Assembly (NCBI GenBank): GCA_963823865.1
Contig: CAWGNC010000003.1
Coordinates: 1,603,842-1,667,841, forward strand
DNA length: 64,000 nt
Source of the DNA: an uncultured Acidobacteriaceae bacterium
GTDB lineage: Bacteria > Acidobacteriota > Terriglobia > Terriglobales > Acidobacteriaceae
Reading direction: 5' to 3'
Below are positions 56,661 through 60,437 of this stretch, in pieces (within the stretch, counting starts at the first letter, position 1; the number at the start of each line of letters is the position of its first letter). Both the position numbers and the translations under genes were made by a program. The notes beneath the pieces were generated by a model, which searched no databases, had not been told where the DNA came from, and saw nothing but the letters and a program-made list of their open reading frames with translations.

Positions 56661-56703
56661 AGCTCTCAGCAATTCAGCTATCAGCCGTCAGCAATTAGCT
56701 AAG
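56661..56703 (-). repeat. heptamer array (sense GCTAATT-type) just upstream of the nuoM start
   Basis: AGCTCTC AGCAATT CAGCTAT CAGCCGT CAGCAATT AGCTAAG. Confidence 0.85.
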
Positions 56704-56715
56704 TCAAAACCTCGC

Positions 56716-56766
56716 TGTCATCCTGAGCGCAGGATCGCGTCTTCTGCGATCCGGAGTCGAAGGACC
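56716..56766. repeat. GTCATCCTGAGCG-(GGATCGC hairpin)-GTCGAAGGACC element
   Basis: TGTCATCCTGAGCGCAGGATCGCGTCTTCTGCGATCCGGAGTCGAAGGACC. Confidence 0.9.
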
Positions 56767-56784
56767 TCTACCGTCCGCCAAGAT

Positions 56785-56880
56785 CTGCCGTCCCTACGGG
56801 ACTCAGCTCTTCGAGGGGTAGCCAACCCCGCGGCTCCCGACCGGGGCCTAAAATCAGTTTCGCCCTTCGGGCTCGGACAT
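56785..56880. repeat. CTGCCGTCCCTACGGGACT module plus GC hairpins
   Basis: The core is identical to 31905-31923. CCCGACCGGGG- and GCCCTTCGGGC-type hairpins follow. Confidence 0.8.
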
Positions 56881-56943
56881 TCGTTATTCAAAGATCTAGA
56901 CCAAAATCTTCGGCCACTCATGACCGCATGGTTTTCAAAGACC

Positions 56944-57013
56944 GCAACTGCGTTACCAACAACCGAACTGGCCACCGGATCACTGACAACTGGCCACTGA
57001 CAACTGACAACTG
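56944..57013 (-). repeat. heptamer array (sense CAGTTGT-type) 4 nt after the nuoL stop
   Basis: About ten 7-nt units, including ACAACTG GCCACTG ACAACTG ACAACTG. Confidence 0.9.
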
Positions 57014-57017
57014 TCTC

Positions 57018-59177
57018 TCACCACTTCACCACGTAATAGAAAACAAATCCCACCAGCCCGGCGACCATCACCAGCGCGTACCACTGCACCAGGCCCCACT
57101 GCACCAGGCGCACGGGATACGAAGCCAGCCGCGTCACGATGGCAACTCCGTTTACGAACAGGCCGTCGATAATCCACTTGTCCCACAGGTTCGACAGCGT
57201 GCCGCTCATGCGCGTCGATCCAGCCCGCGCCGTTCACGGCTGCCGTCGATAACCTCGGCGTCAAACTTCCATAGCCCTTCGCCGAGACCCATCGCGCCCA
57301 GGCGCACGTCGCCGACTTTCTTGCGTCCGGTGAACACCCAGTCGTAGATCTCGTCGATGTACCACTTGTGGAAGAGCGTCGTGTAGAACGCGGGAGCGAC
57401 TTCGCGGATCGGCTCCTTGTAACCCTTGTCGGCCTTCTTGTAGGCGCGTTGCGCCATGAACCAGCCGAGAATCGCCGCTCCCACCGAGGCGAACATCAGC
57501 GCGTACTCCAGCGGATCGGTGTGCTCGACTTGCTGCTCACCGGCGGCAACCTGCGCGGCTGCGCCTTCGTGCTCCAGCACGACAGCTTCTTTGGCGAACA
57601 CCGGCTCCAGGAACTTCTCGAAGCGGTTCGAGCCGCCCAGGCTGTGCGGCAATCCCAGGAAGCCCGCGCCGATCGAGCAGATCGCCAGGATGACCAGCGG
57701 CACCGTCATCGTCTTGGGCGATTCGTGGATGTGGTGCTCGACTTCGTGGTTCATGCGCGGCTTGCCGAAGAACGTCAGGTAGATCAGCCGGAACATGTAG
57801 AACGACGTCATCAGCGCGGTGAGAAATGCGATGTACCAGAGGTAGCGATAACGCGCCGCCCTCGCGCGACCACGTCTCCCACAGGATGGCGTCCTTGGAG
57901 AAGAAGCCCGCGAAGCCGGGAATGCCGGAGATGGCGAGGGTCGCGATCAGCATGGTGCCGAAGGTGACCTTGATCTTCCCTGCCAGCGCGCCCATGTGCT
58001 GCATCTCCTGCTCGCCGCTCATGGCGTGAATCACCGAGCCGGCTCCGAGGAAGAGCAGCGCCTTGAAGAACGCGTGCGTGAAGACGTGGAAGACGCCGGC
58101 GGCGAATGCGCCGACGCCGAGCGCCAGGAACATGTAGCCCAGCTGCGAAACCGTGGAGTAGGCCAGCACGCGCTTGATGTCGTTCTGCACCAGTCCGATC
58201 GTCGCGGCGAAGATCGCGGTCAGCGCGCCGATGATGGCGACGGTCTTCATCGCGTTGGGCGCCAGCACAAACAGCGCGTTGGAGCGCGCCACCATGTAGA
58301 CGCCGGCGGTGACCATCGTCGCCGCGTGGATCAGAGCGGAGACCGGCGTGGGACCTTCCATCGCGTCGGGCAGCCAGACATACAGCGGAAATTGCGCCGA
58401 CTTGCCGCAGGCTCCGACGAACAGCAGCAGGCAGGCGGCGGTAATCACCGGATCGCCGATAGCGAAGCGTCCGCTGCGCGCCAGATGATTGACCGCGGTG
58501 TACTGCACCGAGCCGAAGTACCAGGCGATGGTCAGCATGCCCAGCAGAAATCCGGCGTCACCCACGCGGTTGACGATGAATGCCTTGTTCGCGGCGGTCG
58601 ATGCCGAGTGTCGCTGGAAGTAGAAGCCGATCAGCAGGTACGAGCACAGGCCCACGCCCTCCCACCCGACGAACATCAGGGCGTAGTTATTGGCCAGGAT
58701 CAGCGTCAGCATGGAGAACATGAACAGATTCAGGTAGCCGAAGAAGCGGTAGTAGCCGCCCTCGTGCGCCATGTAGCCCATCGAGTAAATGTGGATGAGC
58801 ATGCCCACGCCGGTGACGAACAGCAGCCAGATCGAGGACAGCGGATCGAGCAGGAAGCCGGCGTCGACGTTGAACTGCGCCGCGCCGCCATGCATGGGAT
58901 AGCGAGCGAGGTGTTAGGCCTGCCAGCGCAGCGGGTGTGCGGTGCCGGTGCCGAGCCAGGTGAACAGGATCGTCTCGAAGGGCTTGCCGGGATTGGCGGC
59001 CGAGTATCCGGTGTACTGCCAGACCGCAAGGCAGGCCCACGCGAAGGCCAGCACGATGACGCCGACGCAGACGCCGTTCACCGCGGATTTCGAGAGCTTG
59101 CGTCCGAAGAAGAACATGCAAGCCGCACCGAACGCGGGAAGCAGCGGAATGATCCAGATGTGGTTTAAGAAAAACAT
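57018..59177 (-). pseudogene. nuoL: NADH-quinone oxidoreductase subunit L, one in-frame TAA plus about 3 frameshifts
   Basis: ORFs 58914..59177 and 57537..58895 are in the same frame, separated by a TAA at 58914-58916. Frame switches near 57855, 57241 and 57216 are needed to reach ...MTSFYMFRLIYLTFFG..., AVNGAGW and the C-terminus ending at 57018. Confidence 0.9.
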
Positions 59178-59232
59178 AGCAATTAGCCGTTAGCACCTAG
59201 CCGTCTACGCAATTAGCAATTCGCCCTTAGCC
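59178..59232 (-). repeat. heptamer array (sense GCTAATT-type) directly abutting the nuoL ATG
   Basis: AGCAATT AGCCGTT AGCACCT AGCCGTC ... AGCAATT CGCCCTT AGCC. The first unit begins at the nucleotide next to the start codon. Confidence 0.9.
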
Positions 59233-59245
59233 AAAACCTAGAACG

Positions 59246-59296
59246 TGTCATCCTGAGCGGAGGATCGCTTCTTTTGCGCTCTGGAGCCGCAGGACC
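59246..59296. repeat. degenerate copy of the GTCATCCTGAGCG element
   Basis: TGTCATCCTGAGCGGAGGATCGCTTCTTTTGCGCTCTGGAGCCGCAGGACC. Confidence 0.8.
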
Positions 59297-59303
59297 CCTA
59301 CCG

Positions 59304-59609
59304 CTACCACTTCAACAAATCGATCTCGTCCACATTCACCGTCTCCTTATTGCGGAAGAAGGCGATGATGATGCCCAACCCGACCGCGGCTTCAGCCGCT
59401 GCGTCGGTGATGACGAAGATGGAGAACACCTGCCCATGCAATCCGTAGAGCCGGGAGAACGCCACCAGGTTCAGGTTCACGGCGTTCAGGATCAGCTCAA
59501 TCGACATCAGGATGATGATCACGTTGCGCCGCGTCAGCACGCCGATGGTGCCGATGATGAACAGCGATGCCGCAACAACCAGGTAATGCAATGTGGTGAT
59601 CTCGGTCAT
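59304..59609 (-). CDS. nuoK: NADH-quinone oxidoreductase subunit K
   Basis: Intact 101-aa ORF with the typical NuoK sequence ([19 protein letters not shown]). Confidence 0.95.
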
Positions 59610-59613
59610 AAAT

Positions 59614-59648
59614 AGCTCTTAGCTCTTAGCAATTGGCAACTAGCCAAA
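59614..59648 (-). repeat. heptamer array (GCTAATT-type) upstream of the nuoK start
   Basis: AGCTCTT AGCTCTT AGCAATT GGCAACT AGCCAAA. Confidence 0.85.
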
Positions 59649-59653
59649 AAACT

Positions 59654-59702
59654 TGTCATCCTGAGCGGAGGATCGCGGTTTTGCGATCGGAGTCGAAGGA
59701 CC
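59654..59702. repeat. GTCATCCTGAGCG element copy
   Basis: TGTCATCCTGAGCGGAGGATCGCGGTTTTGCGATCGGAGTCGAAGGACC. The hairpins GCCGGCTAAAGCCGGC, CACGGCTAAAGCCGTG and GCGGAGCTGAAGCTCCGC follow at 59730-59838. Confidence 0.9.
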
Positions 59703-59844
59703 CCATTCCAGCACCCGCTCTTCCTGCCGCCGGCTAAAGCCGGCTTACATCCCGTGTCGCTCGTTGCACGGCTAAAGCCGTGCCCTTTCAATTCGCTCTG
59801 TTCGATCAGTCTCATTGAGCGCGGAGCTGAAGCTCCGCAGGACT

Positions 59845-59872
59845 CAAACTGACAACCGACAACCGGCAACTG
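59845..59872 (-). repeat. heptamer array 5 nt after the nuoJ stop
   Basis: CAAACTG ACAACCG ACAACCG GCAACTG. Confidence 0.85.
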
Positions 59873-59877
59873 CCTTC

Positions 59878-60396
59878 TCAAATCCTCTTCTTCGCCATGA
59901 CCACCGCGCCTACGATGGCGACCAGCAACAGCAGCGAAGCAATCTCGAACGGGAACATGTACTGTCCGTACAGCGCCAGGCCGATCTGCTGCGTGTTGTC
60001 CCCTTCCAGCCCGCGATAGCCCTGATAGAACACTGACGGAAATCCTCCGCGGCCGGCGCGCAACACAAATGCCAGCAGCCCGCCCAGCGCCAGCGCGGCG
60101 ATCGTTCCGACCAGCCACTGCTTGTTGAACTGATACTCGCGGATGTTCTGCTCCAGGTTGATCAGCATGATCACGAACAGGAACAGCACCATGATTCCGC
60201 CGGCGTAGAGCACGATCTGCACGCCGGCAACGAACGGGGCATACAGCATCAGGTAGAAACCGGCCAGCGACAGCAGAGTCACGATCAGCGACAGCGCCGC
60301 ATGCACCGGATTGCGCCGGGTGATCACCGCGATCGCCGAAACAATCGCCATCACCGCGAGAAAGTAGAAGAAGAATGTTGTGGCAACTGGATTCAT
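59878..60396 (-). CDS. nuoJ: NADH-quinone oxidoreductase subunit J
   Basis: Intact ORF. The ATG at 60396 gives MNPVATTFFFYFLAVMAIVSA. The ORF-track TTG at 60414 lies inside the heptamer array. Confidence 0.9.
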   Translation of the reverse strand: MNPVATTFFFYFLAVMAIVSAIAVITRRNPVHAALSLIVTLLSLAGFYLMLYAPFVAGVQIVLYAGGIMVLFLFVIMLINLEQNIREYQFNKQWLVGTIAALALGGLLAFVLRAGRGGFPSVFYQGYRGLEGDNTQQIGLALYGQYMFPFEIASLLLLVAIVGAVVMAKKRI

Positions 60397-60402
60397 AAAA
60401 TC

Positions 60403-60437
60403 AGCAATTAGCAATTAGCCGTTAGCAATTAGCAAAA
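60403..60437 (-). repeat. heptamer array (GCTAATT-type) upstream of the nuoJ start
   Basis: AGCAATT AGCAATT AGCCGTT AGCAATT AGCAAAA. Confidence 0.9.

Follow-up and report, generated by a model that had tools for sequence, protein, structure and literature searches.

Tandem arrays of seven-nucleotide units at the borders of genes were first noted in cyanobacteria, in 1990, and then, from 2015, in Beggiatoaceae and Xanthomonas. The arrays considered here stand directly in front of nuoM, nuoL, nuoK and nuoJ of an uncultured Acidobacteriaceae bacterium, in a stretch of 64,000 nucleotides (nt) of contig CAWGNC010000003.1 (positions 1,603,842 to 1,667,841 of the forward strand), called the window below, and add a fourth phylum to that record. 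The short tandemly repeated repetitive (STRR) heptanucleotides of heterocystous cyanobacteria and the heptanucleotide long simple sequence repeats (LSSRs) were reportedly described by Mazel in 1990 and Mrazek in 2007. TAACTGA arrays are known from Beggiatoaceae, Cyanobacteria and Bacteroidetes, with 147 of 170 sets facing start codons and 12 facing stop codons, a modal gap of 1 nt to the start and no Shine-Dalgarno (SD) sequence in about 90%, and ribosomal protein S1, Csp proteins or CsrA have been proposed to bind them (MacGregor 2015, PMC4679880). The GGGAATC and GGGGAYT heptamers of Xanthomonas and Nostoc have one defined end 0-50 bp from an open reading frame (ORF) whatever the orientation of the latter; overlaps with stop codons are frequent, and each genome has about 70 inverted pairs (Rehm 2015, PMC4692102). 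A Nostoc preprint describes heptamer arrays that overlap start codons. The view of the original prediction that such leaders had not been described is thus contradicted by MacGregor (2015, PMC4679880), where start-abutting heptamers and the same S1, Csp or CsrA hypothesis are found, and by the similar Nostoc preprint. Literature searches for heptanucleotide repeats together with Acidobacteria, and for later papers giving a mechanism for heptamer arrays, found nothing.

The nuo arrays belong to this already described class of polar, ORF-abutting heptamer simple sequence repeats (SSRs), now in Acidobacteriota. On balance we favour the reading that they are slippage-prone, outward-pointing heptamer SSRs of the LSSR/STRR class at the edges of inserted, repeat-laden spacer cassettes. 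They are probably no dedicated translation signal, because stop codons are faced as often as start codons.

Heptamer arrays and initiation regions of nuoM, nuoL, nuoK and nuoJ

Arrays in the window were detected by direct reading, with Tandem Repeats Finder, by a lag-7 autocorrelation scan and by pattern scans. The period-7 arrays at the start codons of the four genes are real, at the coordinates given in the original prediction. They belong to the minus strand, read (GCTRANN)n in the mRNA sense, and are called F2 here. Six units at 56661-56703 end 8 nt before the nuoM ATG (56650-56652), four to seven units at 59178-59232 touch the nuoL ATG (59175-59177; gap of 0 nt), four units at 59614-59648 end 4 nt before the nuoK ATG (59607-59609), and five units at 60403-60437 end 6 nt before the nuoJ ATG (60394-60396). 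The nuoJ array reads GCTAATT GCTAACG GCTAATT GCTAATT GCT and the terminal units of the nuoK array are GCTAAGA GCTAAGA GCT, while the middle part of the nuoL array is irregular, with 9-nt and degenerate units. A few of the irregular 8-9 nt units may be assembly errors, since single-base indels occur in the window.

The pattern AGCNNTTAGCNNTTAGCNNTT (plus-strand form AGCNNTT x3), with up to two mismatches, gave nine matches within the 64-kb window, all of them in the four F2 arrays, against 0.09 ± 0.32 expected from dinucleotide shuffles, none of 100 of which reached nine. The arrays are heptanucleotide SSRs, with head-to-tail 7-nt units in at least three copies and far above chance, and all nine heptamer arrays of the window are intergenic. 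In a profile of 88 F2 units from the window and its relatives, G, C and T were invariant at positions 1-3, position 4 was A (76%) or G (24%), position 5 was A in 86%, and positions 6-7 were variable. As in the arrays of the MacGregor type, the forward array ends a few nt before the start codon and overlaps the position of a ribosome-binding site (RBS).

Hybridisation of positions -20 to -3 with a 16S rRNA tail that was assumed to be canonical, rather than taken from this genome, gave anti-SD duplex energies of -2.1 kcal/mol for nuoK, -2.5 for nuoJ, -4.2 for nuoM and -6.1 for nuoL, the last value being due to AGGUG about 17 nt upstream, too distant for an SD role. Complementarity of at least 4-5 nt to the 16S tail, located 5-10 nt upstream, was absent at all four starts. 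The corresponding values were -10.8 for nuoN, -9.8 for nuoI, -15.5 for nuoH, -8.2 for ahcY and -8.8 kcal/mol for metK, and -13.4 and -12.0 kcal/mol for two G-rich leaders cited in the original prediction, whose contrast between weak SD pairing at nuoJ-M (-2.1 to -6.1) and proper SD sequences at neighbouring genes (-8.2 to -15.5 kcal/mol) was therefore confirmed. The cost of opening the region from -25 to +12 was 9.4-12.2 kcal/mol for nuoJ-M and 17.3 ± 3.5 kcal/mol for 13 SD-led window genes, both the opening and the duplex energies being thermodynamic predictions, and the AU content of the initiation region was 50-67% and 44%, respectively. Because of this weak pairing, low opening cost and high AU content, the nuoJ-M leaders are predicted to be SD-poor and open, as AU-rich, little-structured leaders of the S1 type are.

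Beyond the window, in acidobacterial loci, a duplex energy of -8 or lower was found at 5% of 57 array-abutted starts and at 21% of 631 other starts called in the same way (p = 4 × 10−4). The tuf leader forms a contrast, since its closing heptamer units are SD-like (GCUAGGAGCUAGAGGCU). SD-like sequence lies inside the heptamer register of the tuf leaders of loci L142, L156, L170 and L214, the embedded units being GCUAGGAGCUAGAGG.

Polarity, spacers and relatives

A scan for GCTAANN x3 in one genome per species gave at least 120 loci, at least 36 of them in Acidobacteriota and at least 17 in Cyanobacteria. Among the matches and loci listed, to which all counts of arrays from other genomes given below refer, further groups were Bacteroidota, Desulfobacterota, Gemmatimonadota, Clostridia, Planctomycetota, Chloroflexota and others, and 150 of 151 arrays were intergenic. 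Some arrays were very long: 33 units of GCTAATG/GTTAATG in Symploca (L118, 7295-7528), 19 of GCTAACA in Maribacter (L089, 1656-1791), about 20 of GCTAATT in an Acidobacteriaceae metagenome-assembled genome (MAG; L086, 6131-6274) and about 20 of GCTAAGA in a soil contig (L206, 1584-1742).

For a census of polarity, period-7 arrays were called de novo in the acidobacterial loci, the strand bearing CTRA was taken as forward, and ORFs passing a GC-phase coding test were used. Of the 256 oriented arrays, 158 had their forward 3' end no more than 20 nt from a gene boundary (a start in 67 cases, a stop in 91), and only 10 had their 5' end so close; for arrays outside the locus selection the figures were 83 and 6 of 131. 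Outward polarity across Acidobacteriota thus holds at starts and stops alike, and, as described by Rehm, one defined array end adjoins the ORF whatever its orientation. Inverted pairs of the form (NNTTAGC)n ... (GCTAANN)n fill many acidobacterial spacers, at any relative orientation of the genes (outward pairs, for example, in L050, L054, L055, L059, L093, L095 and L099). An artefact in which stops supplied by the arrays bound the ORF calls was considered and rejected, the stops being real stops of coding-like ORFs (91 versus 7).

In the acidobacterial sample of the GCTAANN scan, ten arrays faced starts and 16 faced stops. A metagenome scan for an array preceded by BOX, a hairpin-bearing element described below, gave at least 120 loci, in which the composite pointed at 37 starts and at 42 stops, the latter of convergent or upstream genes; the ORFs counted were coding-like, with a C-terminus that could be recognised. 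With the 67 starts and 91 stops of the census, in none of the three samples did the great majority of arrays face starts. In soil metagenomes, BOX and array stood within about 35 nt before tuf, fusA, clpB, dnaJ, hisS, sdhB, purF, nuoG, nuoJ, nuoL, nuoM and other genes; L140 and L155 carry such fusA leaders, and the tuf (EF-Tu) and fusA (EF-G) genes concerned are those of soil Acidobacteria. Outside the nuo loci, GCTAATT arrays faced about seven starts and about ten stops, and arrays with an ACTGA core favoured stops (18 versus 4 starts). A division of labour, with GCTAATT at starts and ACTGACA at stops, is true of the window and the nuo loci only and was rejected as a general rule, as were three-frame stop codons as a common feature, since there are none in GATTCCC, the Xanthomonas unit, or in variants like GTGGCCA.

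The history of the arrays was read from contigs encoding a NuoK identical to that of the window (L001-L009) and from others encoding a NuoK 88-93% identical (L130-L136). In the latter, nuoI and nuoJ overlap and the nuoJ-nuoK junction measures 1-2 nt, with AAGAGGA upstream inside nuoJ, compared with a spacer of 74-268 nt in the window lineage. A compact, SD-coupled nuoJ-nuoK junction therefore appears ancestral, and the arrays appear to have entered with inserted spacers. Among the identical-NuoK contigs the same four junctions are occupied, with differences both in array sequence and in unit number (3-5 at nuoJ, 4-6 at nuoK, 3-6 at nuoM), which is the copy-number polymorphism of the LSSR/STRR class. 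In the nuoK-nuoL spacer of L002, L005, L008 and L009 no heptamer array was found; that spacer is made of hairpins with a GTAG head, of the repetitive extragenic palindrome (REP) type. The string TTTGATTT(A/T)-GCTAATT-GCTAACG-GCTAATT was found before nuoJ, nuoL and nuoM, which suggests cassette copying and not independent slippage.

Genes with a Y1_Tnp domain (IS200/IS605 or resembling REP-associated tyrosine transposases, RAYTs), flanked by GTAG-hairpin REPs (GGTAGAGCGAACCTTCAGGTTCGC), are found between the nuo cistrons of relatives, and genes for 23S_rRNA_IVP four-helix-bundle proteins are likewise inserted there, at sites that differ by strain (L001, 12881-13507; L005, 3875-4471; L131, 8523-9098; L132, 6442-6927; L004, 6052-6474). 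In this clade, the spacers between nuo cistrons are hot spots of selfish DNA. The nuoK-nuoL spacer of a Terriglobales MAG (L133, 6307-6367) carries another family, (AAGAACY)3, just before the nuoL ATG, without GCTRANN arrays. In L130 (6580-8796) NuoL was called with 738 rather than the usual 709-710 amino acids (aa), and the call appears to extend to the first in-frame TAG of the downstream array (TTGATTTAG|CTGACGG), an example of arrays fixing annotated ORF ends.

In the mRNA sense, the spacers run from the stop codon through a second heptamer array, variable hairpins, among them BOX and ones like Acido-Lenti-1, and a U-tract to the F2 array and the ATG. The second family, F1 (GTTGTCA/GTGGCCA in the mRNA sense), lies directly 3' of the nuoL, nuoJ, nuoI, ahcY and metK stops, and with the CTRA-bearing strand as forward both F1 and F2 point outward to the adjoining gene. 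Listed on the minus strand, F1 occupies 56966-57017, starting about 1-5 nt past the nuoL stop (57018-57020) with its CTGA-bearing forward strand on plus, and 59843-59877, directly 3' of the nuoJ stop (59878-59880); an F1-like array at 60866-60890 directly follows the nuoI stop (60892-60894). Outside the operon, F1 arrays without an F2 partner lie at 30521-30553, 2 nt past the ahcY stop, and at 32086-32117, 1 nt past the metK stop, where the downstream gene is ahcY with an ordinary SD.

The REP-like BOX element, about 50 nt long, has five copies in the window, all on the minus strand, in which GGTCCTTCGACTCCG is followed by a hypervariable inner hairpin and CTCCGCTCAGGATGACA. The copy at 56717-56766 stands about 15 nt before the nuoM F2 array and consists of GGTCCTTCGACTCCG, a variable hairpin and CTGCGCTCAGGATGACA; the others precede the F2 arrays of nuoL (59247-59296), nuoK (59655-59702) and nuoJ (60477-60526), and a variant with a long inner hairpin (54880-54959) lies in the nuoM-nuoN spacer, where no heptamer array follows and nuoN has kept its SD, GAGGA. 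The inner hairpins comprise 130 distinct sequences, and 112 of 142 were more stable than their own shuffle. Since an array follows only nine of 88 unselected BOX copies, and few arrays come with BOX, a single obligatory element made of both was rejected. BOX flanks GGTCCTTCG...GCTCAGGATGACA, around a hypervariable palindromic insert, are abundant in soil metagenomes, often in inverted pairs (TGTCATCCTGAGCG...CGAAGGACC / GGTCCTTCG...GCTCAGGATGACA).

Taken together, these data suggest the following course. In a Korobacteraceae-like Terriglobia lineage, repeat-laden cassettes would have been inserted into a nuo operon that was compact until then; the arrays of the cassettes would arise and vary through replication slippage and, judging by the string shared before nuoJ, nuoL and nuoM, may have spread together with the cassette. 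Insertion would have shifted the ancestral SD, AAGAGGA in the 3' end of nuoJ, beyond reach, and for NuoJ, NuoK, NuoL and NuoM the initiation site would now be the edge of the cassette, a leader rich in AU, weakly structured and poor in SD pairing, with stops in all three frames. An open leader of this kind would favour initiation of the S1 or standby type, and the arrays would be tolerated, perhaps mildly favoured, as leaders.

Several points weigh against this course. The gene maps come from our own ORF calls with a GC-phase heuristic, and the loci were sampled by pattern, many nuo sites being orthologous rather than independent. The precise array ends at gene boundaries have no mechanistic account, and simple slippage does not predict them; at the nuoJ-nuoK insertion no target-site duplication was visible. 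Arrays persist at the same four junctions in many strains, and the same type of leader before tuf, fusA, clpB, dnaJ, hisS, sdhB and nuoG could reflect selection for function. In Beggiatoaceae, moreover, with a start to stop ratio of about 12:1, a translational role is a serious hypothesis (MacGregor 2015, PMC4679880).

The locus is a natural experiment in an essential operon of stoichiometric products, whose junctions occur, among close relatives, in a compact form with an SD and in a form expanded by an array; these two junction states, with the variation in unit number between strains, make a role of the arrays in translation directly testable. It also bears on how operon expression stays balanced after invasion by spacers. 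In addition, gene callers based on start codons and SD sequences will misjudge array leaders, and stop-bearing arrays will truncate or lengthen ORF calls.

The genes concerned lie on the minus strand and were named NuoJ, NuoK, NuoL, NuoM and NuoN by NCBIfam: nuoJ at 59878-60396 (172 aa with the ATG at 60396 as start), nuoK at 59304-59609 (101 aa), nuoL at 57018-59177, interrupted in comparison with intact 709-aa relatives, and nuoM at 55081-56652 (523 aa). The gene order in contigs with an identical NuoK is nuoC-D-H-I-J-K-L-M-N. The window nuoL is broken into three ORFs and shares about 91-92% nt identity with the intact relatives; it has gained single nucleotides near 57217, 57240 and 57849 and 28 nt near 58913-58941, and a further pair of changes, near 58424/58428, is compensating. 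The nuoN ORF (53293-54786) fits NuoN models only at residues ~16-216, a frameshift being probable. The damage to nuoL and nuoN represents either pseudogenes or indels of a long-read assembly; nuoM and nuoN calls are also split in several related contigs. Among other features of the spacers, an Rfam match to Acido-Lenti-1 was found in the nuoI-nuoJ spacer at 60583-60643 (+), antisense to nuo, with 39.4 bits, above the gathering score, and a second, weak one at 56772-56803 (+); GTCCC-TACG-GGGAC hairpins similar to the Acido-Lenti-1 site lie at about 31906, 56788 and 60545. The nuoI-nuoJ spacer also contains a tandem repeat (60654-60773) with a 32-36-nt unit in about 3.4 copies, 75% matches and the consensus CGTTCCGCATCACTCTCGAGCTCGGAGATCCTTCAC.

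Alternative readings

According to the original prediction and to MacGregor, the start-proximal (GCURANN)n would be a dedicated, SD-independent translation element, either a periodic single-stranded platform for the 30S subunit, acting through S1 or an oligomeric RNA binder resembling Csp or HutP, or a binding array for a regulator that coordinates many housekeeping genes. Between array and ATG there are 0-8 nt, SD pairing is weak and the initiation region is predicted to be open; SD sequences are depleted at the 57 array-abutted starts; a conserved 5-nt core, GCURA, with two variable positions is what would be expected of a repeated binding site; and the same leader recurs before tuf, fusA, clpB, dnaJ, hisS, sdhB and nuoG/J/L/M in soil metagenomes, with the bias of 147 starts to 12 stops in Beggiatoaceae as a parallel (MacGregor 2015, PMC4679880). 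Nevertheless we think this reading unlikely. The original prediction had itself named arrays lying mostly away from start codons as counting against it, and in the acidobacterial samples stops are faced at least as often as starts, so that the arrays do not stand as start-codon signals; the copies after stops are antisense, and a sense-strand RNA signal cannot account for them. Nor does the leader appear necessary, the array before nuoL being absent in four relatives with an identical NuoK and sister lineages having an SD-bearing nuoJ-nuoK junction of 1-2 nt. The tuf leader, with its SD-like units, indicates that the SD is still in use where high output is needed. What survives of the translation leader is the RBS position, the weak SD and the open, AU-rich character; the start-specific signal, the novelty and the necessity do not. 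The near 1:1 ratio of starts to stops, the antisense copies, the absences in sisters and some strains and the tuf units together lead us to disfavour a dedicated signal.

The arrays could also act at the DNA level, as sites for a protein binding double- or single-stranded DNA (a nucleoid protein, an insulator or the transposase of the cassette) or as cruciforms marking gene boundaries whatever the direction of transcription. Their polarity regardless of gene orientation and their frequent inverted pairs, seen also in Xanthomonas (Rehm 2015, PMC4692102), would fit, as would the conserved core with variable spacer positions and the presence of RAYT-like Y1-transposase genes and REP hairpins in the same spacers of relatives. 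However, no protein emerged as a candidate, the arrays are not consistently linked to a transposase gene and are rarely joined to BOX, the arms are frequently non-complementary, and 54600-61000 contains no sigma-70-like promoter and no enrichment of terminator-like sites (six versus 5.5 expected). We regard a DNA-level role as distinctly improbable.

A similarly slim chance is given to a combined reading, in which GCURANN arrays and zipping post-stop arrays would together act as a portable cassette for translational coupling, by which selfish spacers could live in essential operons, with SD-independent recruitment of ribosomes through S1 or a dedicated oligomeric RNA binder at dozens of acidobacterial housekeeping genes. 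If it were true, termination upstream would license initiation downstream. The zipping itself, in which post-stop F1 (GUUGUCA) would pair with pre-start F2 (GCUAAUU), partly by G-U wobbles, and close the spacer, would set the stop of the upstream gene beside the start of the downstream one, and a terminating ribosome would melt F1, free F2 and the AUG, and couple translation. The predicted F1-F2 duplex is stronger in the sense than in the antisense strand at nuoL-nuoM (-41.0 versus -21.1) and nuoI-nuoJ (-19.9 versus -5.3), surpasses that of shuffled arms (z as low as -4.8, at nuoL-nuoM), and appears as a long-range helix in the minimum-free-energy and centroid structures of both full spacers; of the co-oriented spacers whose arms are unlike, about 11 pair better in the sense strand and two or three in the antisense strand. 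The zipper is nonetheless the least credible of these readings: pairing is not conserved at orthologous sites, with about 0-1 expected arm-arm pairs at nuoJ-nuoK (window, L003 and L004), nuoL-nuoM of L004 and nuoK-nuoL of L130; shuffled-arm controls in short spacers give similar values; the G/U richness of one arm suffices for the strand asymmetry; and some arrays stand alone (ahcY, metK) or lie between convergent or divergent genes.

Two further candidates were rejected: a known RNA family, the Rfam scan of the window giving matches to Acido-Lenti-1 only and no family over the arrays or BOX, and sigma-70 promoters (TTGCTA-N17-GCTAAT) of short-leader or leaderless mRNAs, for which a consensus scan gave no site in 54600-61000 (1.2 expected) and whose hexamer positions are incompatible with a transcription start at the ATG. 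With regard to contingency loci, at which a change of unit number in a promoter spacer or reading frame switches surface or otherwise variable genes (phase variation), the genes downstream of the arrays are housekeeping ones (nuo, tuf, fusA, clpB, hisS and others), and no sigma-70-like promoter was found to overlap the arrays.

Comparison with known systems

With the TAACTGA arrays, the arrays at nuo share tandem 7-nt intergenic units in 2-6 copies, a forward end a few nt before starts and over the RBS position, the usual lack of an SD, an association with housekeeping genes (there including ribosomal-protein operons) and stop codons within the unit (MacGregor 2015, PMC4679880), and the window F1 unit (forward ACAACTG) is one base off ATAACTG. 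The two differ in that the Beggiatoaceae arrays are mostly at starts, whereas the acidobacterial ones are split about 1:1 or toward stops, the TAACTGA-like family of the window (F1) facing stops only; moreover, inverted pairs are common among the acidobacterial arrays, some of which are joined to the REP-like BOX. The GGGAATC/GGGGAYT arrays are, like those described here, mainly intergenic heptamer SSRs, polar, found in inverted pairs and not tied to phase-variable surface genes. Their units, however, are G-rich and quadruplex-capable, whereas F2 units are AU-rich, with a GCTRA core, forward-strand stops and no quadruplex motif, and no BOX-like partner has been reported for them (Rehm 2015, PMC4692102).

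REP sequences, bacterial interspersed mosaic elements (BIMEs) and REPtrons resemble the arrays in being intercistronic, near stops, in either orientation, in inverted pairs and polymorphic between strains, and genuine GTAG-hairpin REPs and Y1_Tnp genes share the nuo spacers of relatives. The heptamer arrays differ from them as tandem direct repeats, without the GTAG head and imperfect palindrome of a REP; the GTAG-hairpin REPs and the hairpin-like BOX are separate modules. SD-independent initiation on unstructured, A/U-rich leaders, by an S1-dependent or a standby mechanism, is well established. The nuoJ-M starts resemble such leaders in that the SD is weak or lacking, the sequence rich in AU and the predicted cost of opening low. 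Known leaders of this kind are not periodic, however, and the periodicity of the nuo leaders appears to come from their repeat origin rather than from a translational need.

The STRR and LSSR heptanucleotides share with the arrays the period of seven, the intergenic position, the presence of many unit families per genome and a rapid change in copy number attributed to polymerase slippage, and the GCTAANN scan itself gave the cyanobacterial loci mentioned above. The difference is the layout of stop, F1, F2 and start inside an essential respiratory operon, which is specific to this lineage.

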